A DNA stretch of 64,000 nucleotides, from NCBI GenBank assembly GCA_963845755.1, contig CAWJTV010000001.1, forward strand, positions 192,001-256,000, read 5' to 3'. How positions within the stretch are numbered: the first letter of the stretch is position 1; the number at the start of each line of letters is the position of its first letter. Below the pieces are notes generated by a model that was not told the DNA's origin, did no database searches, and saw only the letters and a list, made by a program, of their open reading frames with translations. This document shows, piece after piece, positions 1,980 through 22,106 of the stretch. Origin of the DNA: an uncultured Planctomycetota bacterium. GTDB taxonomy: Bacteria; Planctomycetota; Planctomycetia; Isosphaerales; Isosphaeraceae. Both the position numbers and the translations under genes were made by a program.

Positions 1980-3353
1980 CTACGATTTCCAACCCCACAA
2001 GGAGGCACCGGGGGCGGTGAAGTAGAGCGACGGGCTATTCGTCACGAAGTCGGTCGGGATGTTGTTCGAGCCGGTCTTGAGGTTGGTGTCCATCACCGTC
2101 CCGGACGACGTCCCGTTGCTCTGCCACACCTGGAAACCGCTCTTCGCCGTGTAGGCGGTGAAGTACAGCATCCCATTCATGGCGATCAGGTTGGTCACGT
2201 CGGCGGTCAACGTGCCGTTGATGTCGGTCACCATCGCTGTCCCACTGGCCGTCCCGTTGCTCGACCACAACTGCTCGCCGTCCACACCGTTATTGGCCGC
2301 GAAGAACACCGTGTTGCCCACGGCCGTCAGATCCTCGGGACTCAGGCCCCCACGGCTAGCGTTGCCGCTGCTCAACATCACCGTGCCCGCCCCGGTCCCA
2401 TTGCTCTTCCAGACCTGCGTGCCGTGGACCCCATCATTGGCCGCGAAGAACAGCGTGCTCCCCACCGCCGTCAGGTCGGTGGGATTCAGGCCCAATCCGG
2501 CCGCGCCGCTGCTGGTGAGCCGGTTTGTCCCGCCGGACGTCCCGTTGCTCGACCACAACTGGAACCCGTGAGTCGGGTCGAAACCGCTGAAATACAGGGT
2601 CCCCCCCACCGCGGTCAGGTATTGCGGGATTGTGCCGCCCCCCTTGGCGTTGCCGCTGCTGACCATCGTCGTCCCGCTGGACGTCCCGTTGGTCTTCCAC
2701 AACTGCGAGCCGGCAGTCGCATTGTCGGCCTGGAAGTAGAGGACGCCGCCGGCGACGGTCAGCTCGCTGGGATAGGAGCCGGGCTCATTGTTGGCCCCGG
2801 GGATGTCGGCCACCATCGTGGTGCCCGCAGCAGTCCCGTTGCTCTTGAAAAGCTGGGTGCCGTCGTTGAGGTCCAGGCCGGTGAAGTAGAGGGTGCCGTT
2901 GCCGTTGGTCAACTGGGACGGATAGAGGCCGAAGTTGGGGACGCCGTCGTTACTGTCGGTGACGTAGGTGGTGCCGCCGACGGTGCCGTTGCTCTTCCAG
3001 ATCTGGTCGCCGTGGGTGAGGTCGTCGGCGGCGAAGTAGAGGGTCTTGCCGACGGCGGTGAGGTCCTTGGGGTTGATGCCGCCGTTCTTGTCGTTGGAGT
3101 TGGTGAGCTGTATCGTGCCGCTGCTGGTGCCGTTCGTCTCCCAGAGTTGGGTGCCGTGGGTGGCGTCGTGGCCGACGAAGAAGAGCTCGCCGTTGATCGC
3201 CACCGGCGCCGACATGACCGTGGGGGCGAAATTGATGGGGGTCGCGGTCAGGAGCTGGCGGCCCTCGAGATTCTCGACATTGAGACCGAACTTAATTCTC
3301 CGCCTGGACGTGGCCTTCGCGGAGGGACAACGCTTCGTCGGGAGAGAAAACAT
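1980..3353 (-). CDS. ELWxxDGT-like repeat (predicted beta-propeller) extracellular protein with planctomycete N-terminal motif
   Basis: 457-aa ORF. About 8 repeats of ~48 aa of form LYFxAxDxxxGxQLWK(S/T)NGT. N-terminus RRRIKFGLNVENLEGRQLLT resembles the planctomycete extracellular motif. Confidence 0.85.
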   Translation of the reverse strand: MFSLPTKRCPSAKATSRRRIKFGLNVENLEGRQLLTATPINFAPTVMSAPVAINGELFFVGHDATHGTQLWETNGTSSGTIQLTNSNDKNGGINPKDLTAVGKTLYFAADDLTHGDQIWKSNGTVGGTTYVTDSNDGVPNFGLYPSQLTNGNGTLYFTGLDLNDGTQLFKSNGTAAGTTMVADIPGANNEPGSYPSELTVAGGVLYFQADNATAGSQLWKTNGTSSGTTMVSSGNAKGGGTIPQYLTAVGGTLYFSGFDPTHGFQLWSSNGTSGGTNRLTSSGAAGLGLNPTDLTAVGSTLFFAANDGVHGTQVWKSNGTGAGTVMLSSGNASRGGLSPEDLTAVGNTVFFAANNGVDGEQLWSSNGTASGTAMVTDINGTLTADVTNLIAMNGMLYFTAYTAKSGFQVWQSNGTSSGTVMDTNLKTGSNNIPTDFVTNSPSLYFTAPGASLWGWKS

Positions 3354-4570
3354 GGGCTGTCTCCGTCAGGTCGGGGGGGAGGCCAAGTCAACGTGGCTTT
3401 GTCGGGGCGTTCCGCGCCGAGTGCGCGGGGAATCTTCGCCCCAGGTGTCTCCCCCGGATCATCAAAACATCCATCATTCCTGTGGCAGAGTAGGCCAATA
3501 TGGCACGGCCCGATCGGGACGCCCCCGCACCCTCGGCGCAGGAACGCTTTGTCCCGGGGCACTCCCCGGCCCTTCAATCATTCACCGATCGTGCTAGAGG
3601 GAAGGTGACCCGCCGCACATGCAGAGTCACGGCTGAGAGCCAACTGAACGCGCACGCCTCTCCATCTCGGAGAGTCTACGCTCGTCGAGGTTCCCTCATT
3701 CACTGCTTTGTTGATTGGATGCCGCTGACGCGATGCCAGGGCTGTTGATTAGGGGTTGCTCTGGGTGACCCGCCGTGCCTGCCGCCTGCGATTCTTGCGG
3801 ATTCCTTCTGAGTCCTCGAATCGTTGCGGCCCTCTCCCGAGGGATTCGTCGCAGGGTGGGTCTTTGAGAAAAGGGTGCTGTATCGTAGGCAGGCTCATTG
3901 GGGTTGTCAAGAGCTAATGCGCTCATTTTTCAGCATGCTCATTTCCATGTTTCCTCAATCGAATTGATCGCTCACCAATGGCATCCGCCTTACATGCATG
4001 TCTTCGAGTGATCCGGCGTGGCGGGTGCCATCGACGTCCCGCATCTCGGTGCCGCGTGCCTTGATAGGGGGCCGACCGAGGCCGATCTAGGCATTGAAGC
4101 GAACGGCGTGATGATGCGGGGTCTTCATCGCCATGGTGAGGAGTCGTCGCGACCTGGCGCGTTAAGTTGGGCCAACTGTAGTCGTGATGGCATCTATAGG
4201 CAGTCTACTTGTCCTACTAGTTATGCCGGGATCGCGGTGCGTCAGACGTTCTCTTATACCACAGTCGTGGAGCCCACAAGACATCTCGATCGTCCTGGCA
4301 ACTTTCTTATCGATCACACAATGTCGAGAGGATGAAAGCGTGCTGCCTTGCGAATATGGGGGCCGCGGGACTCTGATCGTCCGCCATTCGAGCATCTAAC
4401 GCCGATGTGGCCGACGGTCGGGGAAGAGGACGCCTTCCACCATTCCCAACGTCCGGCCAGCCCGAGGTCATTTTGTCGAAGCCGGCTCCATCCGGCGATC
4501 GTCATTTCACTGATAAGCGCTCTAGAGCGCATAACAGATGGGTTGCGCACACCCTTTCAGCCGAGGTTCT

Positions 4571-10877: not shown

Positions 10878-10980
10878 AGTTCACCCTGATTAGCCGATCA
10901 ATCGCTAGGATCCGGCTCTGCGGGAGCGGTCGATACCGTGATCGCGCCACGGAACCCGTACAGGAAGGGGAGTGTGTAGG

Positions 10981-12687
10981 ATGAAACGATCCGCCGCGCC
11001 AGTGATGCTCATCATGGCGTTGCTGTTCTCCGGTGCCGAGCCTGCCCGGTGCGGGGCTCAGCAGCCGTCATCGGCCATGCCATCGTCGAACCAGCCGCCC
11101 ATGACCGTACCGTCGCAAGCCCAGCCGGGCCGATCGACCGCGCCGAGTACGGCCCTTCCTGGCTCTGTGCCCTCGGTGGCGCCCCTTCAACCGCCGGGCG
11201 AAGGGGCCATGCCGTCGGCCACGGCCCTGGCGCCCGGGGCTGGGGACCTGTCCTTGAAGCTCAAGCCCGCGCCGCTGGACTCGACCGATTTCCGTTTTCC
11301 GATCAATCTCGCCACGGCCTTACGACTCTCCGACGCGCGTCCCCTGATCGTGGCGGCCGCGCAGGCCAGCGTGTGGGTGGCCGAGGCGAAACTGACACGG
11401 GCCAAGGTCCTCTGGGTCCCTCAGCTCAATCTCGGTGCCGATTATATCCGGCACGACGGTGGCGGCCCCGACTTTAACAAGGGCATCATGACCGCGCCGA
11501 GCGTGAACTTCTTCTACGGCGGTGGTGGCATGTGGCAGAACGTCGCCATGACGGATGCCATCTTCCAGCCCCTGGTCGCGCGGCAAGTGCTGAGGTCCCG
11601 TCAGTTCGACATCCAGACCGCGAAGAACGACTCCTTGTTCATGACCGCTAAAGCCTACTTCAGCGTGCACGAGTCTCGGGGGATGTTCGCCGGCGACCTC
11701 TACTGCGTCGAGCGAGGGCACGACCTGATCGAGCGGATCGCCCAATTGAGCCACGAACTGGTCCCCGCGGTCGAAGTGGATCGGGCCAGGAACCTGGTGG
11801 CCGACATCGAGCAGAAGGCCACCATGTCGCGCCAGCGGTGGCGCGAGCACAGCGCCGACCTCACCCAGGTTCTGCGACTGGATCCCCGCGCCGTGGTCGT
11901 CCCGCTGGAGTCCGATCATCTCCAGCTCACCTTGATCGACCCGGCCAGGACGCTCGACGACCTGATCCCCGTCGCTCTCACCAATCGCCCCGAGCTCGCC
12001 GCTCACCAGGCGATGGTCCAGGCGGTGGCGTCGGCGATCCGCCGCGAACGAGGGCGACTCCTGCTCCCCAGCGTCCTGATCAACGGCTTCCAGACCCCCT
12101 ATGAAATGATCCAGGCCGGGATCTTCGGCCTGGGCCCCAACAACCTCATGAACCAGTGGACCGGCCGTATGGACCTGAGCTATCAGGCACTCTGGGAACT
12201 GGAAGCCTTCGGGATCGGCAATCTGGCCCGGATCAAGGAGCAACGTGGTGAACAATCGAAAACCATCATCGAGCTCTTCCAGACCCAGGACCACGTGGCC
12301 GCGGACGTCACCCGCTCCATGGCGCGTCTCCAGTCGGCGACCGCGCGAGTCAGCCAGGCCGATCGCGCCTTGCGCACCGCCATCATCACCTTCAACGGCA
12401 ACTTCGAGGGCCTGAGACACACCACGCGATTTGGCGACGTGCTGGTCCTGGTCAACCGGCCTCAGGAAGTGGTCTTCGCCCTCCAGTTGATGCAGATCGC
12501 CTTCTACGAATACTTCTCCACGGTCGCCGACTATAACCGGGCCCAGTTCGAGGTGTTCCACGCGCTGGGCTACCCTGCCCAGGAAATCACCTATCTCCGG
12601 CCCCCCGGCGACATCCAGCCGGTAGACCTCGCGCGGCCGACCTACCTGCCGGTAGTGGGGAATGGGCCGCCTCCGGCAACTCGTTAG
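10981..12687 (+). CDS. TolC-family outer membrane efflux protein (copy 1)
   Basis: Signal peptide, then PINLATALRL, ALTNRPEL and ADYNRAQF motifs of outer membrane efflux proteins, with a two-repeat organisation. Confidence 0.85.
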   Translation: MKRSAAPVMLIMALLFSGAEPARCGAQQPSSAMPSSNQPPMTVPSQAQPGRSTAPSTALPGSVPSVAPLQPPGEGAMPSATALAPGAGDLSLKLKPAPLDSTDFRFPINLATALRLSDARPLIVAAAQASVWVAEAKLTRAKVLWVPQLNLGADYIRHDGGGPDFNKGIMTAPSVNFFYGGGGMWQNVAMTDAIFQPLVARQVLRSRQFDIQTAKNDSLFMTAKAYFSVHESRGMFAGDLYCVERGHDLIERIAQLSHELVPAVEVDRARNLVADIEQKATMSRQRWREHSADLTQVLRLDPRAVVVPLESDHLQLTLIDPARTLDDLIPVALTNRPELAAHQAMVQAVASAIRRERGRLLLPSVLINGFQTPYEMIQAGIFGLGPNNLMNQWTGRMDLSYQALWELEAFGIGNLARIKEQRGEQSKTIIELFQTQDHVAADVTRSMARLQSATARVSQADRALRTAIITFNGNFEGLRHTTRFGDVLVLVNRPQEVVFALQLMQIAFYEYFSTVADYNRAQFEVFHALGYPAQEITYLRPPGDIQPVDLARPTYLPVVGNGPPPATR

Positions 12688-12995
12688 CGCATCCGCCGCT
12701 TCGACTCGGGTGAAGAAGTCCGAATGCGCCTTTCGCACGCAACCCATGCAAGGGGGATCCCGAATCCCCCAATTCTCCCTCTCGACCCGATCGCCACTGC
12801 CCCCGCAGATGAGATAAGCGATTCATGCCGAACGTCATCTGACCACTCGATCGCGCGCAGCTTGCGAATCGTCGGTTAGACTTAGTGGGGCCGGTCCACG
12901 GCCCGAGATGACGGTCGAGCGGAACCCTGAGCGGACAGCACGCCAGGGTCCATGTGATCGCAACTCTTTAAGGGGGCACACGGATGTTTTCGCGG

Positions 12996-14045
12996 ATGCG
13001 GCACAGTGGCGGAGTCCCATTGACGGCGCTGGTCTTGGGTGTGAGTTCCTGGATCTTCACCAGTTCATCGGCGATAGCCCAAGTAGGAGTTTCCCAAGGT
13101 GATGGCGTTCCCGCCACCGCGTTGGCGGTGACGGGGATCCCGACCGCGCTGCGGGACGATTGGTCCGGCGGCCCAGTCCGATGGAACCCATACGACCCTC
13201 CCGCCACCGGCTACGCGGGGATGGGTGACAGTGTGATCCACTCGTGGCTCTGGGAGCAAGGCGTCGCGTTCGACTACGCGCGGCACCATGCCGTGGGCCC
13301 CGGCTCCCTCGGCTATGCCACCTCGGGCAACGGCGAGTTCGGCGTCTACCCGGGCTTCCATGGCTTTGGCATGTCGTTCAGTCGGGGTTACGGATACGGC
13401 GGCGATGGCCTGGGCGTCGGCGCCAATGGCGGCTATCCGTATTACGGCGGCCCTGGCTATCCTCGTGGCGGCTACTGCTACCCTGGCCCGATGTTTGCCA
13501 GCGAGGGCCCCTTCGGGCCATTCACCGGCCCTCCGCCTTATCCGGAAGCGTACTTCGCCCCCTACACCGCCGCCGCCGCGACGACCGGTTCGGCCAGTGG
13601 CACCGCGCCGTTCGATCCGTTCAGCACGCCTTCCATCGAGGGCGCGCTCCCTCCGTCGGCCTCCTTGGCGCCGGGGCCGAACCCGATTTCCACGGTCCCC
13701 GCGCACTACCGCCTGGGGATCCAGGACGAGTCGGTCGTCAACCCCGACGGGACCCGCGGCTTGAAAATCACCAGCGTGGTCCCCACATCTCCGGCGGACA
13801 AGGCCGGCCTCCAGGCGGGCGACGTCATCCTTTCGATCAATGGCTTTCACACCGATGTACCCGGGAACCTGGTCTGGATCATCGCCAACGAGGCGCCCAA
13901 TAATCTCCTCACGATGACCGTTCGCAAGGTGGGTGATGGCAAGGAGCATCCCGTCATCGTCCAGCTCCCGCCGGTCCCCGTGGACACGTCCCGGCCGTCC
14001 TACCTTCCCCCGGCCGGCAATGGGCCGCCCCCGCCATCCCGCTGA
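12996..14045 (+). CDS. Secreted Gly/Tyr/Pro-rich protein with a C-terminal PDZ domain
   Basis: Signal peptide ends SAIA-Q. LGI...GLKITSVVPTSPADKAGLQAGDVILSING is a PDZ signature. No protease domain is visible. Confidence 0.8.
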   Translation: MRHSGGVPLTALVLGVSSWIFTSSSAIAQVGVSQGDGVPATALAVTGIPTALRDDWSGGPVRWNPYDPPATGYAGMGDSVIHSWLWEQGVAFDYARHHAVGPGSLGYATSGNGEFGVYPGFHGFGMSFSRGYGYGGDGLGVGANGGYPYYGGPGYPRGGYCYPGPMFASEGPFGPFTGPPPYPEAYFAPYTAAAATTGSASGTAPFDPFSTPSIEGALPPSASLAPGPNPISTVPAHYRLGIQDESVVNPDGTRGLKITSVVPTSPADKAGLQAGDVILSINGFHTDVPGNLVWIIANEAPNNLLTMTVRKVGDGKEHPVIVQLPPVPVDTSRPSYLPPAGNGPPPPSR

Positions 14046-14223
14046 GTATCACCAGCGTCTTCTCATGCTGGTATCAGTGAAGAGGATTCTCTTCAATCCG
14101 TTGCGGCAAGATGGGCACGGTTTGCCGATGGTCGCCCCCATTCAAGGGCGTTCGGCAAGCCGTGCCCATCCGGCGTCAGGTCCCGGCTCGACAAGGACGG
14201 AGTTTTCGGCGAGAAGTATTGAT

Positions 14224-14249
14224 TGAACCCCCCCGAATTTCCGACGTAA
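14224..14249 (+). promoter_or_regulatory. ECF sigma-type promoter candidate
   Basis: TGAACC-N15-CGTAA, fitting the AAC/CGT ECF pattern, 44 nt upstream of the 14293 start. Conserved at 17256-17281. Confidence 0.55.
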
Positions 14250-14292
14250 AGAAAACGAGGGGTTTGTATCTACTCGAGCCAAGGGGCCATCC

Positions 14293-15069
14293 ATGCGCCA
14301 ACGTCCGGTCATGAGATTCCTGCCGGATCTCGAGCGATTTGAGGCGAAGCCATTGCTCAGCGCCGGTCCGATGACATCTCACGTCGCGAGTCTCGCGGCC
14401 GGGTCGAAGGGCTCGGCCCTGGATTCGGCGGAGACTTCGGTCGCCCACCGGGCCGCCGTCAAATCGGCCCATGACGCCGGTACGAGGCGACACGGAACCG
14501 CGGGCATCGGGTACCTCGCGTACCGCATCACAAACCCGACCGGTCGGCCCGTTCACCTGATACCCCCCTTCCAGCAGGTCCTGGTCCAAAATGTCCAACC
14601 GGTTCCCGGCAGGACTTACAACGTGCTCTATATCGCCGTGAGGAACGGGACGGCGAAGACCTTCACGGCCAGTGACGGGTTCACCGTACGAATCCCCGGC
14701 AATAGCGGCGGCCACGCCGTGAAGCAAGAGGGATTTCCGGTCCTGACGGGCAATGAGGTGTGGAAGCCGAATACATGGATGGTCTTCTATGTTCTGAGCA
14801 AGAAGTACTACCCGCTGTCGCCGCAGGTTGGAGCGAGTTTCCAGCTCCAGGCGGACGGCCGGTCATCCACGTTGGTGGCGGGTCCATCGGGAATCTTCCT
14901 CCGGCTCAAATATAATCCGGCCACCTTCGCCAGCACTCTCAACTGGATCGTAGCCTTTAGCCAGGGCGCGCAGTTGGGCAACGGTTCGAGAGTGGGCATG
15001 CCGGACACGGCCATCAATGTGCTCGTCTCGGCAGGGACCAACCGGATCGATTTTGGTGGCCACTTCTGA
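14293..15069 (+). CDS. Hypothetical secreted protein with planctomycete N-terminal motif (paralog A)
   Basis: Starts MRQRPVMRFLPDLERFEAKPLLS and is clearly paralogous to 17324..18058. Both end RIDFGGHF. Confidence 0.8.
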   Translation: MRQRPVMRFLPDLERFEAKPLLSAGPMTSHVASLAAGSKGSALDSAETSVAHRAAVKSAHDAGTRRHGTAGIGYLAYRITNPTGRPVHLIPPFQQVLVQNVQPVPGRTYNVLYIAVRNGTAKTFTASDGFTVRIPGNSGGHAVKQEGFPVLTGNEVWKPNTWMVFYVLSKKYYPLSPQVGASFQLQADGRSSTLVAGPSGIFLRLKYNPATFASTLNWIVAFSQGAQLGNGSRVGMPDTAINVLVSAGTNRIDFGGHF

Positions 15070-15100
15070 TCGGCCCCTCACGCGGCCAATGAATAATCCA

Positions 15101-15148
15101 ACGGCCCGGCCCAGGGCCATCCCCCTGGGACGGGCCGTCATCGTTTTC
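15101..15148 (+). terminator. Probable intrinsic terminator hairpin
   Basis: Stem ACGGCCCG.CCCAGGG...CCCTGGG.CGGGCCGT followed by CATCGTTTTC, just after the 15069 stop. Confidence 0.5.
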
Positions 15149-15182
15149 GCGCGAACGCGAGGCGTGGCAAGGGAGTAAACCA

Positions 15183-15251
15183 GGGGATGGCGAGTCCTGC
15201 ATTGTCTTCCAATCGAGAATCCTGGGTCGAGTCCGGCATTTCCGATCATCC
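15183..15251 (+). promoter_or_regulatory. Conserved upstream element of TolC gene 2
   Basis: Gap-free block conservation with 10809-10877 (offset 4374). Confidence 0.6.
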
Positions 15252-15351
15252 CGCCCACGACGGTTTGTCGATGAATCCCCAAGAACGCGCTCAACCGGAG
15301 TGGCCGATATGATCGTCGCCGAAGAACCCGTGTTGGAGAGAGGTTTGTACG

Positions 15352-17179
15352 ATGGAACGATCCGCCTGGCCATTGATCGTCCTCGTGGTCTTGGTGTTCA
15401 TCTGGGTCGGACCTCTACCATGTGTGGCACAGACGCAGACCCTGCCCGTGCCCAGGTCGTCACCACCGACTCAATCGGCCTCGCCGACATCCAGCGCCGC
15501 CGAGGTCTCGATCCCGCCGCCTCGCGACTTTTCCCGAACGGGCGGATCGTCCTCTGCAGCGGCGCCGGCATCTCGGGTCGCCGTGCCGGCGCCGCGCCGC
15601 GTCCTCCTGGCTACGAACGGATCGTCCTCGGCGACGGCGACGTCGGCCGGCAGCACCCAGCCGGCGCCGGACGCGGTTCAAGGAACAGGAGAAGCGATCG
15701 TGCCGTCCACTTCGGCCCTCGCTCCCGTTCAGGGCGAGCTGGCCTTGAAGTTAAAGCCGGCGCCGCTGGAGCCGACCGACCTCCACTTTCCCATCAACCT
15801 CGCCACGGCGTTGCGTCTCTCCGATGCCCGGCCGCTGATCGTGGCCGCCGCGCAGGCCAGTGTGTGGGTGGCCGAAGCACAGCTCACACGGGCCAAGGTC
15901 CTCTGGGTTCCTACCCTCATGGTGGGTGCCGATTATATCCGGCACGACGGCGGTGGTCCGGATTTTAACAAGGGCATCATGACTGCGCCGAGCGTGAACT
16001 TCTTGTACGCCGGTGCGGGTGCGGACCAGTACGTCGCCGTGACCGATGCCATCTTCCAGCCGTTGGTCGCGCGGCAGGTCCTCAAGGCAAGGCAATGGGA
16101 CATCCAGTCGGCCAAGAACGATGCCCTGCTCCAGACCGCCGAGTCCTACTTCAACGTGCATCAGCATCGGGGCAAGTTTGCCGGCGCACTCTACTGCGTC
16201 GAGCGGGGGCACGACCTGGTCGAGCGGATCGCGCAATTGAGCCGGGAACTGGTCCCGACGGTCGAGGTGGATCGGGCCCGGAACATGGTGGCCGACCTCG
16301 AGCAGCAGGCCACATCCGCCCGGGAGGCCTGGCGCGTCAACAGCGCCAACCTCACCCAGGTCCTGCGGCTGGATCCCCGCGCCGTGGTGATGCCGCTGGA
16401 GCACGATCACCTCCAGCTCACCTTGATCGACCCGGCAATGGCGCTCCACGACCTTCAGCAGATGGCCTTGACCAACCGCCCCGAGCTCGCCTCGCTCCGG
16501 GCGATGGTTGAGGCGGCCGATGTGAAGATTCGCCGGGAGAAGTTGCGGCCGTTCCTGCCCATCGTCATGATCAATGGCTTCCAGAGCGCCGGCATGTATC
16601 TCCAGGCCGGAATCTTCGGCCTCGGGCCCGAACAGCGCCATGAACCAATACACCGGTCGCGTCGACACCAGCTTTCAGCTCATCTGGCAATTCGACGCCT
16701 TCGGAATCGGAAACCTCGCGCGGGTCAAGGAGCAGCGCGGTGGTCAGTCGGAGGCCATCATCCAGCTCTTCAGGAGCCAGGACATGGTCTCGGCCGAAGT
16801 GATGCGGTCCCTGGCGAGTCTCCAGTCGGCGACGGCCCGGGTCACCCAGGCCGACCGCGCCCTGCGCACCGCCATCATCACCTTCAACGGCAACTTCGAG
16901 GGCCTACGGCATACGACCCGCTTCGGCGACATCCTGGTCCTGGTCAATCGGCCGCAGGAAGCCGTCTACGCGCTCGAGCTGATGAAGCTCGCCTTCGACG
17001 AGTACTTCACCACGGTCGCGGAATACAACAAGTCGCAGTTCCAGCTCTTCCACGCGGTGGGTTACCCCGCCCGCGAGATCGCCGATCTCCATCCCCCCGG
17101 CGATATCCTGCCGGTCGAGACGGCGCGGCCGGCCTACCTGCCCGTCGTGGGCAATGGGCCGCCCCCGACAACACGCTGA
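15352..17179 (+). CDS. TolC-family outer membrane efflux protein (copy 2); frameshift near 16626
   Basis: Highly similar to copy 1. ORFs 15352.. and 16574..17179 join at GIFGLGP|NSAMNQYTG (one extra base). Confidence 0.82.
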
Positions 17180-17255
17180 AACATCGGCCTTCTGGCGGGC
17201 TTGGCCCCCCCATCAACGAAGTAATGCCCCTCGGCTCGGAACTTCTTGGCGCGAA

Positions 17256-17281
17256 CGAACCGCCACGGATTTCCGACGTAT
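17256..17281 (+). promoter_or_regulatory. ECF sigma-type promoter candidate
   Basis: CGAACC-N15-CGTAT, sharing ATTTCCGACGTA with the site at 14224-14249. Confidence 0.55.
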
Positions 17282-17323
17282 TGAGAGGAGAGACTCTCGT
17301 TCTCTCCAGCCGAGGCTTCATCT

Positions 17324-18058
17324 ATGCGCCAGCGCCCGATGTTGAAATTCCGTCCAGGTCTCGAGCAATTGGATCACAGGCAACTCCTCAGCGCCGGCGG
17401 ATTGGCGAGCCTCGCGAACCACTCGAGGGACCCAACAGTTCACTCGGCCGATCAGTCGCGTGCTCGCGCGTCAGACGGTGACATCACCAGTAGTCGATCC
17501 GCACTCCCGACTGGGTTCCTCGCGTTCCGCATCACCAATCCGACGCATCAGATCCCCGTTGATCTGGTTCCTCCATTTCAGCAAGACCTGGTCCAATCGC
17601 GCCATCCCGTGCCCGGCGAGGTCTACAACGTGCTTTATGTCGCCGTGAAGAACGGGACTTCCCAGACCTTCAGCGCCAGCAACCGCTTTACCGTCAGGAT
17701 GACGAATCAGCCCCGCTCCGTCGCCTTCCCGATGCTGACGGGGACCCAGCAGTGGAAGCCGGGCCAGTGGATGGTGCTCTACATCCTGACCAAGAAGTAC
17801 TATCCGGTGTCGCCCGTGGCCGGCGGCTTCCAGCTCGATGCCGGCGGTCGGTCCTCGACGCTCGTGCCGGGACCGTCGGGGATTTTTCTTCGGCTGACCT
17901 ATAATCCCTCCACGTTCGCCAGGACCCTCAATTGGATCGTCGCCTATGGCCCGGGCGCGGAGTCGGGCGCGGGCCCGAAACTTGGCCTGCCTGACACGGC
18001 CATCAACGAGCTCGTCGCCGCCCGGACCCACCGCATCGATTTCGGCGGGCATTTCTGA
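17324..18058 (+). CDS. Hypothetical secreted protein with planctomycete N-terminal motif (paralog B)
   Basis: Starts MRQRPMLKFRPGLEQLDHRQLLS. Shares RITNPT, PPFQQ, YNVLY, KKYYP, GPSGIFLRL and RIDFGGHF with paralog A. Confidence 0.8.
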   Translation: MRQRPMLKFRPGLEQLDHRQLLSAGGLASLANHSRDPTVHSADQSRARASDGDITSSRSALPTGFLAFRITNPTHQIPVDLVPPFQQDLVQSRHPVPGEVYNVLYVAVKNGTSQTFSASNRFTVRMTNQPRSVAFPMLTGTQQWKPGQWMVLYILTKKYYPVSPVAGGFQLDAGGRSSTLVPGPSGIFLRLTYNPSTFARTLNWIVAYGPGAESGAGPKLGLPDTAINELVAARTHRIDFGGHF

Positions 18059-18074
18059 GGGACCGATCACGACC

Positions 18075-19208
18075 TCATACGCTGACGATCACCACATCGA
18101 TCCCATCGACAGTGCGGAGGAGCCGTTCGAGGATCGAGCCGTGCAGGAGGCGGTGATACCAGGGCTGGCGACTCTGGCCCATGAGGATCACGCGGATGCT
18201 ATATTCCCGCGCGAAGGCCAGGATCGTCCTGACCACGTCCGGCCCGCGGAACGTCATGGGCACGCCTCCGAGCTGTTGCGCGAGTTCCAGGCTCTTGCTG
18301 ATGGCTCGTTGCGTCGCGGCATCGATCCGCGTCAGGTCCTCGGCCGGCGTCTGGATATAGACGGCGTACCACGGAGCATTCAACCGATCGGCCAGCCGGG
18401 CGGCCTTGCGGAGCAGGGCCGGAGCATTCGGGCTGCGGCTCGACAGGCCGACCATCAACCGGTCGGTCACCGACACGGGCGCGCGGTCGGCCTCGGCACG
18501 ACGGCCGCGACGGTCGATCAGGTGGGCCATCTCCGTCAGTGTGATCTCTCGCAGCCGGGTCAGGTTGCCCTGGGTGAAGAAATTCGCCAGTGCCCGCTCG
18601 GCGCGCTCCGGAGGGTAGACCTTGCCCGCCCGCAGGCGTTCCAGCAGGTCCTCGGTCGAGACGTCGATATTGACGATCTGATCGGCCTCCCCCAGCACCG
18701 AGTCGGGCAGTCGCTCCTTGATCTTCACCCCCGTGGCCCGCTCGACCTCATCGTAGAGGCTCTCCAGGTGCTGGATGTTGACCGTGGAGATCACATGGAT
18801 TCCGGCCCGCATCAACTCCTCGACATCCTGATAGCGCTTGGAATGGCGGCTGCCAGGGGCATTGGTGTGCGCCAATTCGTCGACCAGGCACACCGTCGGC
18901 CGACGGGCGAGGATCGCATCCAGGTCCATCTCGCGCAGCGTCACGCCCCGATACTCGATCGAGCGGGGTGGGATGAGCTCCAGGTCTCCGATCTGCTCGG
19001 CGGTCTCGGCGCGGCCATGCGTCTCGATCAGGCCGATTGCGACGTCGAGGCCCTGCTGCTTGAGCCGGTGCCCTTCGCGGAGCATGGCATAGGTCTTGCC
19101 AACGCCCGCGGCGGAGCCCAGGTAGACCTTCAGCCGGCCGCGTTCCTGGCGGCGGATCAGGCTGAGGAACTGCTCCGGGGTCGGACGGCTGGGTTCGACG
19201 ATGGCCAT
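18075..19208 (-). CDS. kdpD: KdpD N-terminal (KdpD + USP) protein lacking transmembrane and kinase domains
   Basis: GRLKVYLGSAAGVGKTYAML, LVDELAHTN and RYQDVEEL, followed by a USP domain and a stop. Confidence 0.88.
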   Translation of the reverse strand: MAIVEPSRPTPEQFLSLIRRQERGRLKVYLGSAAGVGKTYAMLREGHRLKQQGLDVAIGLIETHGRAETAEQIGDLELIPPRSIEYRGVTLREMDLDAILARRPTVCLVDELAHTNAPGSRHSKRYQDVEELMRAGIHVISTVNIQHLESLYDEVERATGVKIKERLPDSVLGEADQIVNIDVSTEDLLERLRAGKVYPPERAERALANFFTQGNLTRLREITLTEMAHLIDRRGRRAEADRAPVSVTDRLMVGLSSRSPNAPALLRKAARLADRLNAPWYAVYIQTPAEDLTRIDAATQRAISKSLELAQQLGGVPMTFRGPDVVRTILAFAREYSIRVILMGQSRQPWYHRLLHGSILERLLRTVDGIDVVIVSV

Positions 19209-19225
19209 GACCGGACCTCCGAGGA

Positions 19226-19792
19226 TCACTTCGGGGGCGTCGCATCGTCCAGGGCCAGATTGAGCCGCAACACGTTCACCCGTGGCGGGGCACCGACTAT
19301 CGCCCCGGATCGCTCGATGTGGGCCGCCATTTGCGCGCGCAGTCGATCCTCCGTCAACCCTCGGGCCGCGGCCACGCGCCCGAGCTGATACTCGGCCGCC
19401 TCGAGGCTGATGTGCGGATCCAGGCCCGAGCCGGAGGCCATCACCAGGTCCACCGGAGCCGGCTTCTCCCTGCTGGCCTTCACGGCCTCGGCCCGCTCGG
19501 CAATCTTCTTGCGCAAGTCCGGGTTCTTGGGACCGAGGTTCGATCCTCCCGTCGCGTCCGCCTTGTAATCGACGGCGGACGGCCGAGGATGAAAGTAACG
19601 ATCGGAGGCGAACGGCTGGGCCACAAGGTCCGAACCGATCACGATCCCCTCACGATCCGAGATGGGACTTCCTTCGGCCTGATGCGGGAAGGCCAGGTGG
19701 GCCAGTCCCCAGACCGCAACCGGATAAGCGGCGGCACACAGCACGAAAGTCACTGAGCAGGCGAGCAACGCCGTCTTGATTTCGCGAATCAT
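19226..19792 (-). CDS. kdpC: K+-transporting ATPase subunit C
   Basis: YFHPRPSA, GGSNLGP, DLVMASGSGLDPHIS and VNVLRLNLALD motifs. Confidence 0.93.
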   Translation of the reverse strand: MIREIKTALLACSVTFVLCAAAYPVAVWGLAHLAFPHQAEGSPISDREGIVIGSDLVAQPFASDRYFHPRPSAVDYKADATGGSNLGPKNPDLRKKIAERAEAVKASREKPAPVDLVMASGSGLDPHISLEAAEYQLGRVAAARGLTEDRLRAQMAAHIERSGAIVGAPPRVNVLRLNLALDDATPPK

Positions 19793-19966
19793 CACGCAGA
19801 GTCTCCGATCGGGCCGCTGGAATTGCCGGAGGGGGCCGAAGAGCCGCGCTCCTGAGAACAGGTGGAGGAACAGGTGGAGCAACCGTACACTAGTTTCATC
19901 GGCGTCAATACAATAAATAAAATATTTTAATGATTACATTTATCAACATGAAGCTTTTGAACCGCA

Positions 19967-22106
<2,140 letters not shown>

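Follow-up and report, generated by a model that had tools for sequence, protein, structure and literature searches.

A conserved C-terminal tail shared by TolC-like proteins and an adjacent PDZ protein in Isosphaeraceae

The window analysed here, a stretch of 64,000 nucleotides from an uncultured planctomycete of the family Isosphaeraceae (contig CAWJTV010000001.1, positions 192,001 to 256,000), encodes two TolC-like outer-membrane factors, TolC1 and TolC2, which end in the same conserved peptide of 22 residues. A PDZ protein encoded between them carries a further copy of this tail. To judge from its distribution, the tail is a lineage-specific C-terminal extension of one TolC subfamily, with the PDZ protein as a secondary carrier. 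The copy on the PDZ protein is, by its pattern of codon substitutions, old and under purifying selection. As a tentative interpretation, to which we assign a probability of about 0.4, the tail would be a periplasmic docking motif that is read by a shared partner and mimicked by the PDZ protein; this partner would be either the product of an adjoining gene, here called X, or TolC itself.

The shared tail had been reported in a first-pass annotation of the window, and translation of the frames places it at the same coordinates on all three proteins. According to the list of open reading frames, five genes on the same strand span positions 10972-18058. Their features are listed below; the signal peptides of TolC1 and the PDZ protein were judged by reading their sequences.

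10972..12687 (+): TolC1, TolC-like outer-membrane factor of 571 amino acids with signal peptide and C-terminal tail; open reading frame
12619..12684 (+): tail of TolC1, PVDLARPTYLPVVGNGPPPATR; matched by the tail profile at an E value of 1.2e-13
12984..14045 (+): GY-rich PDZ protein of 353 amino acids with signal peptide, Gly/Tyr/Pro-rich region, single PDZ domain and tail; open reading frame
13707..13946 (+): PDZ domain, HtrA/DegP/DegS-like, residues about 242-321; assigned by Pfam, structural model and Foldseek
13977..14042 (+): tail of the PDZ protein, PVDTSRPSYLPPAGNGPPPPSR; matched by a 24-position tail profile at E = 8.4e-10 per genome
14293..15069 (+): X1, 258 amino acids, no known family; N-terminal RPxLExFExKxLLSAG leader, disordered linker, beta-sandwich core and invariant ...R.DF.GHF C-terminus
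15352..16641 (+): TolC2, N-terminal part in the first reading frame; open reading frame, Pfam OEP at E 2.8e-10
16622..17179 (+): TolC2, C-terminal part in the second frame (open frame 16574-17179); profile positions 339-499 plus tail
17111..17176 (+): tail of TolC2 at the end of the frame, PVETARPAYLPVVGNGPPPTTR; translated open reading frame
17324..18058 (+): X2, paralog of X1 with 244 amino acids; leader and C-terminus as in X1

The tail and its carriers

The consensus of the three tails in the window is PV[DN]TxRPx[YF]LPxVGNGPPPATR. In a six-frame scan of the entire genome (14.27 Mb), the full motif was found only at the ends of five open reading frames, three of them in the window (TolC1, the PDZ protein and TolC2) and two belonging to a tandem pair of TolC paralogs on contig C11. 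Of 20 aligned tails, 18 terminate in Arg, preceded by PPP (...PPPATR). With a mean identity of 83-84% over 24-42 tail columns, compared to 64% across the whole TolC alignment, the tail is, at the level of aligned sequences, among the best conserved parts of the TolC protein. A repeated DNA segment does not account for the tail, since the three copies in the window differ in the third position of many codons. An RNA or DNA element instead of a peptide was ruled out because synonymous sites vary freely (proportion of synonymous differences, pS, 0.55).

Judged with the tail profile, the match between the TolC and PDZ proteins exceeds chance. Outside the tail the two carrier families are, by domain assignment, unrelated (Pfam OEP versus PDZ), in agreement with the first-pass annotation. 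The OEP family (PF02321) matched all 16 aligned members of the TolC subfamily with a best E value of 8.9e-17; at a cut-off of 22 bits, the N-terminal part of TolC2 scored 40.7 and TolC1 alone 19.8. The cut-off of TIGR01844, the type I secretion TolC subfamily, was not reached (20.8 versus 225.15 bits). Searches of Protein Data Bank sequences returned nothing relevant with a single TolC sequence (one unrelated hit, E 0.68) and nothing at E ≤ 0.1 with a 16-row TolC profile.

A survey with the tail profile detected the motif in 72 of the 121 genomes of the family (33 of 53 genera; 2-7 copies per genome) and in none of 300 other genomes drawn from the phylum. Such a survey had been proposed in the first-pass annotation; the carriers were of the TolC and PDZ types only, with the tail strictly at the C-terminus. 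The carrier lineage is a group of soil planctomycetes within the single family Isosphaeraceae. A 30-position profile mixing TolC and PDZ tails was also run against 1.84 billion representative proteins at E ≤ 1e-3 and gave 38 matches. Of these, 20 were inspected: 12 are C-termini of TolC type, many of them from fragments with frameshifts, seven are GY-rich/PDZ proteins, and one is a spurious match to an unrelated repeat protein. One database protein (P0033) has the GY-rich region and the tail, with no recognisable PDZ domain.

Conserved motifs at the extreme C-terminus of unrelated exported proteins are familiar from sorting signals that act together with an enzyme, such as PEP-CTERM/exosortase, LPXTG/sortase and GlyGly-CTERM/rhombosortase. 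There, the motif is followed by a hydrophobic helix and basic residues, and carriers are many. Although the tail resembles such signals in its position and in being common to unrelated exported proteins, it has no hydrophobic stretch that could form a transmembrane helix and no basic cluster at its end; only five carriers, belonging to two families, are present in the genome, and none of them is linked to a sorting enzyme. A general sorting tag, as suggested in the first-pass annotation, was ruled out by the two carrier families, the 2-7 copies per genome and the restriction to one bacterial family. A narrower variant holds that the tail is read during export, whether by a chaperone, a factor of outer-membrane assembly or an enzyme that modifies it, and that the PDZ protein shares this route. 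The high conservation of a strictly C-terminal motif, the signal peptides read in both carriers and the presence of the motif on TolC paralogs away from X and PDZ genes are consistent with such a biogenesis or modification signal. However, the small number of carriers and the missing hydrophobic and basic elements speak against it as well, and no conserved gene for a candidate enzyme was seen in 22 mapped loci, a weak point in that these were scanned with four profiles only. We regard this explanation as rather improbable.

Gene cluster and protein X

Four local profiles, one each for the tail, the PDZ domain, X and the TolC body, were used to map the 22 loci. The following gene orders were observed:

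TolC(tail)-X-TolC(tail)-PDZ(no tail): 7 loci
TolC(tail)-PDZ(tail)-X-TolC(tail)[-X]: 7 loci including the window; one shows the PDZ(tail)-X part only
TolC(tail)-X-TolC(tail), no PDZ gene in the 13-14 kb fetched: 4 loci (G119, G136, G142, G061)
TolC(tail)-PDZ(no tail)-X-TolC(tail)[-X]: 1 locus (G035)
TolC-TolC-X-PDZ(no tail): 1 locus
TolC pairs alone: 2 loci

By coordinates, four further tailed PDZ genes followed by X (G017, G083, G086, G089) and two further tail-less PDZ genes in the order TolC-PDZ-X (G029, G090) were identified. Tailed PDZ genes were located directly upstream of X in 11 of 11 cases, and a tail was present on none of the eight mapped PDZ genes that do not precede X. The nearest upstream neighbour of X was tail-ended for 24 of 27 mapped X genes, in three of these across a gap of about 1.1 kb; the three exceptions were two tandem X copies and the X gene of G035.

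Presence of the components in the 121 family genomes was scored with thresholds of E ≤ 1e-8 for X and E ≤ 1e-12 for the PDZ ortholog:

Tail: 72 of 121 genomes
X: 68 of 121 genomes, 33 of 53 genera
Tail and X: 67 genomes
Tail without X: 5 genomes, all 70-91% complete
X without tail: 1 genome
PDZ ortholog: 62 genomes
Tail and PDZ ortholog: 58 genomes
Tail without PDZ ortholog: 14 genomes, 9 of them at least 93% complete
PDZ ortholog without tail in the genome: 4 genomes

The tail is kept in genomes without the PDZ protein, but it was never seen without X in a good genome. As X adjoins a tailed TolC gene, the co-occurrence of tail and X represents co-inheritance of the cluster and is no proof of contact.

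X1 and X2 are 57% identical in the alignment (60% by search). All 709 homologs of X are unnamed or annotated as hypothetical. X matched no family in Pfam or NCBIfam, and Foldseek retrieved nothing from the Protein Data Bank at E ≤ 1e-3. A wide VIA-align search gave a best Z score of 3.7, to generic beta-sandwiches, and the ESM Atlas yielded no usable match. In the alignment of X, an invariant leader (P11, E14, L21, L22) is followed by a linker of variable sequence, rich in Ala and Ser, and then by a well conserved core that spans about 190 residues. The predicted structure shows a disordered N-terminus and a beta-sandwich core. The C-terminus reads ...R.DF[AG]G[HR]F (X1, 15046-15066; X2, 18035-18055), and its final Phe is invariant in 40 of 40 rows. 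Complex prediction with alignments for residues 66-258 of X and the 42-residue end of TolC1 gave an ipSAE interface score of 0.00 in two runs, which weighs neither way.

The leader of X has the form Arg-rich ... RPxLExLExRxLLS/T/A, without the hydrophobic core of a Sec-type signal. It heads 77 open reading frames of the genome with a median length of 473 amino acids, 16 of which have at least 1000 amino acids; in the window it occurs at 14293-14370, 17324-17400 and 1983-3365 (-). Nine of 14 large leader proteins scanned carry PKD, Big, cadherin, dockerin, FG-GAP, NosD or subtilase domains. In this company the leader looks like an export leader, and since X shares it with proteins bearing extracytoplasmic domains, X is probably exported. 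A literature search for a planctomycete N-terminal export motif of this kind returned nothing relevant.

TolC2 was described in the first-pass annotation as one protein ending at position 17179. The tail at this end stands, but the gene is not a single open frame: the reading frame switches near 16622-16641, between GLGP and NSAMNQ. Positions 22-345 of the TolC subfamily profile match the N-terminal part at 15679-16641. The second TolC gene of the C11 pair is also split into two frames, and TolC genes are likewise split in several related assemblies. The kdpB gene, located 3 kb downstream, is divided over two frames as well (19905-22106 (-) and 19967-20215 (-), covering profile positions 3-601 and 610-674). 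Two frameshifts so close together, within 4 kb, suggest that the assembly contains indel errors. The frameshift of TolC2 may reflect an assembly error or a pseudogene; given the recurrence of split TolC genes in related assemblies and the similar split of kdpB, an assembly indel is as likely as a pseudogene. Parts of the stretch are present in six soil-metagenome runs, with no RNA run listed among them; in the four runs examined, nothing spans 16573-16639. The neighbours outside the cluster are unrelated to efflux: an SDR oxidoreductase is encoded upstream, and the kdp operon lies downstream on the other strand, with kdpC at 19226-19882 and a KdpD-like non-kinase sensor at 18075-19229.

The PDZ protein and its copy of the tail

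The PDZ domain scored 41.9, 37.5 and 37.3 bits with the Pfam families PDZ_6, PDZ_2 and PDZ, respectively, all above the cut-offs. Its AlphaFold2 model has predicted local distance difference test scores (pLDDT) of about 81-93 in the core. Foldseek with this model retrieved 123 matches at E ≤ 1e-3, the top ones being HhoA, DegP, CtpB and DegS (E 5.5e-6 to 1e-4). The relatives of the domain by fold are the PDZ domains of HhoA, DegP, DegQ, DegS and CtpA/B. A protease domain was not found in the protein; HtrA-type models of NCBIfam matched only residues about 250-344, with 15-37 bits against cut-offs of 147-800. The Gly/Tyr/Pro-rich region occupies positions 13230-13560 (residues about 83-190) and contains stretches such as ...GYGYGG.GLGVGA.GGYPYYGGPGY...; its conservation in orthologs as well as paralogs sets it apart from simple low-complexity sequence. 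Three more GY-rich PDZ paralogs are encoded in the genome, all tail-less (C34, 192830-193102 and 623498-623770; C36, 248626-248895). Neither a TolC nor an X gene is found near these isolated copies, and their neighbours are uninformative.

PDZ domains bind C-terminal peptides, and the first-pass annotation had suggested that this one binds the tail. In such a scheme the neighbour's PDZ domain would take up the tail of TolC, and its own tail would fill the groove in cis or connect PDZ proteins in a head-to-tail fashion. Many genera keep the TolC and PDZ genes as a pair, and no other peptide-binding module is recognisable in the cluster. Moreover, a putative carboxylate-binding loop, LGI(D/E)E, is preserved in tailed and tail-less orthologs alike (G9 invariant in 33 of 33 rows), and this conservation suggests that the domain binds some C-terminus. 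The canonical ligand, however, is a free C-terminus that has a hydrophobic or aromatic last residue and is able to add a beta-strand. The tail ends in Arg after PPP, and an AlphaFold2 model that included the PDZ protein's tail along with the domain showed no added strand and left this tail unstructured (pLDDT 57-70). The nearest structures belong to the HtrA family, several of their entry titles naming peptides that end in YQF or YRF. In addition, a conserved stretch of 22 residues is longer than the ligand read by a PDZ groove, the 14 tail-positive genomes without a PDZ ortholog and the four mapped clusters without a PDZ gene within 13-14 kb keep the tail all the same, and the three PDZ paralogs of the genome lie far from any TolC gene. 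Taken together, binding of the tail by this domain is unlikely. The accompanying idea that the protein is inhibited by its own tail finds no counterpart in the self-model, and most orthologs lack a tail.

A better-looking candidate ligand for an HtrA-type PDZ domain than the tail is, from its residues, the ...GHF end of X. PDZ domains of this type bind such ends, and the adjoining gene encodes one.

Tailed PDZ proteins were found in 11 genomes from six genera, and the tail-less form was found in 51 of the 62 genomes with an ortholog. The first-pass annotation had named tail-less orthologs as a sign of a one-off recombination with the tolC 3' end. Most orthologs are indeed tail-less, but the spread of tailed forms over six genera speaks against a single such event. 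All tail-less PDZ proteins stop at one place, just past the last PDZ strand, and no tail remnant or readthrough was detected in three frames behind the stop of nine orthologs examined.

Selection on the PDZ tail was estimated from 10 tails, with G089 and the truncated G068 copy left out. At a pS of 0.55, the proportion of nonsynonymous differences (pN) was 0.19, giving a pN/pS of 0.35 over the tail and 0.29 over its 17-codon core. For six adjacent TolC tails, pN was 0.125 and pN/pS 0.25. Purifying selection, which the first-pass annotation had raised as a check, is thus evident in both carriers, and the tail is conserved across genera. The adjacent tolC 3' end was ruled out as the source of a recent gene conversion, because the DNA identity between PDZ and TolC tails of the same genome (59-79%; 68% for the PDZ and TolC1 tails of the window) is no higher than that between genomes (mean 72%).

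Phylogenetic analysis of 33 PDZ domains (94 columns; three distant or aberrant rows dropped before alignment) gave a tree in which only 5 of 30 inner branches were well supported. A TolC tree was built from 39 intact genes, leaving out frameshifted ones including TolC2. It is split mainly by lineage, and within-genome pairs cluster. The PDZ-preceding TolC proteins of rearranged clusters fall into one group with a value of 92 in the Shimodaira-Hasegawa-like approximate likelihood ratio test (SH-aLRT), below the starred threshold. The TolC tree neither supports nor excludes a tandem duplication plus in-frame deletion as origin of the PDZ tail. From the sequence data we read the PDZ tail as one old acquisition that was tied to the rearrangement and followed by losses; repeated gains by the PDZ protein may provide an alternative history.

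The tail could also matter on TolC only. In that case, the PDZ frame would have been joined by a rearrangement to the 3' end of a TolC gene preceding X, and the resulting copy would have little function of its own. This by-product explanation accounts for the confinement of tailed PDZ proteins to the rearranged order TolC-PDZ-X (11 of 11), for their patchy distribution (11 of 62 genomes with an ortholog), for the loss or truncation of the PDZ tail in four lineages, and for the somewhat greater variability of PDZ tails relative to TolC tails in pN. It is, however, at odds with a pN/pS of 0.29-0.35 at near-saturated synonymous change across six genera, which indicates selection on the peptide, and with the lack of remnants behind the stop of tail-less orthologs; nor does the TolC tree give clear support to a simple duplication-deletion path. 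We regard a mere by-product as a rather improbable explanation of the PDZ copy.

Docking of the tail and relation to known systems

Among the proposals of the first-pass annotation, binding of both tails to a shared partner fits best, and it forms the core of the docking interpretation. Outer-membrane factors of the TolC family are characterised by a trimeric alpha-barrel/beta-barrel fold with both termini in the periplasm. From this topology we infer a periplasmic location for the tail, and docking as such is a further step of the same kind. The tail would hang from the equatorial region of TolC as an extended, proline-rich peptide and would be bound not by the PDZ groove but by another partner, most likely X or the surface of TolC. 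In the cluster variant with the PDZ gene between TolC and X, the PDZ protein would have acquired its own copy of the motif, which would then have been kept by selection. As a mimic, this copy would occupy the docking site of the TolC tail.

Several observations weigh against docking and mimicry. The partner of the tail is a candidate only, by sequence and gene context, and X has no classical signal peptide, so that its compartment, too, is one that we infer. Every TolC of the subfamily is tailed; thus, the co-occurrence with X does not single out the tail. The tailed TolC pair of contig C11 (104000-122000) lies downstream of genes for an RND transporter, membrane-fusion proteins and a TPR-containing protein, with no X or PDZ gene nearby. 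Tail-less PDZ proteins occur in the order TolC-PDZ-X in three genera (G035, G029, G090), and the PDZ tail of G068 is cut after ...RPPYLPP, from which it follows that the PDZ copy is dispensable in some lineages. Finally, the weakly resolved PDZ tree rejects a single tailed clade in the approximately unbiased test (p = 0.017) and implies six changes of tail state.

The components could be combined into a larger, motif-held complex at the outer membrane that would be particular to this family of planctomycetes. TolC tails would dock to X or to the TolC surface, the ...GHF end of X would sit in the PDZ groove, and, in rearranged clusters, the PDZ tail would close the chain, resulting in an accessory ring around TolC. 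We consider this full arrangement highly speculative and very unlikely. If true, such a motif-coded ring would have no counterpart in known tripartite pumps.

Two known systems come close to parts of this picture. PDZ domains of the HtrA family (DegS, DegP, HhoA) recognise outer-membrane proteins by their C-terminal peptides. By fold and by partial NCBIfam matches, these are the closest to the PDZ domain of the cluster, and the protein that carries the latter is exported and encoded beside outer-membrane proteins. It differs from HtrA proteases in lacking a protease domain and in its Gly/Tyr/Pro-rich N-terminal part, and the shared tail, with Arg after prolines, differs from the aromatic ends of HtrA ligands. 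In Escherichia coli, the accessory lipoprotein YbjP is reported to be bound to the outer-membrane factor TolC in a 3:3 ratio (PMC13095208). The likeness lies in a dedicated accessory protein beyond the three classical pump parts, which is a candidate only in the cluster described here. YbjP is a lipoprotein, whereas the candidates here are the leader-bearing beta-sandwich protein X and the GY-rich PDZ protein; what stands out in the cluster is that the channel itself bears a conserved peptide at its C-terminus. A conserved channel tail of 22 residues with a duplicate on a neighbouring protein is a feature of neither TolC-YbjP nor recognition by HtrA proteins, and no published description of the TolC tail or its PDZ copy was found in searches of the literature on TolC accessory proteins and on the outer membrane of Isosphaeraceae.

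Accessory subunits of TolC-type channels are only now emerging, as exemplified by TolC-YbjP, and planctomycete envelopes are poorly understood. The finding defines a sharply bounded signature and a conserved four-gene cluster with two proteins of unclear role. The PDZ copy amounts to a natural experiment, with the motif transferred to another protein and retained there. Should the tail prove to be a docking peptide, a synthetic 22-mer could readily serve as bait for its partner, and the system would show how outer-membrane channels recruit periplasmic partners via linear motifs. Otherwise, the tail would still cleanly mark one TolC subfamily as well as protein family X.

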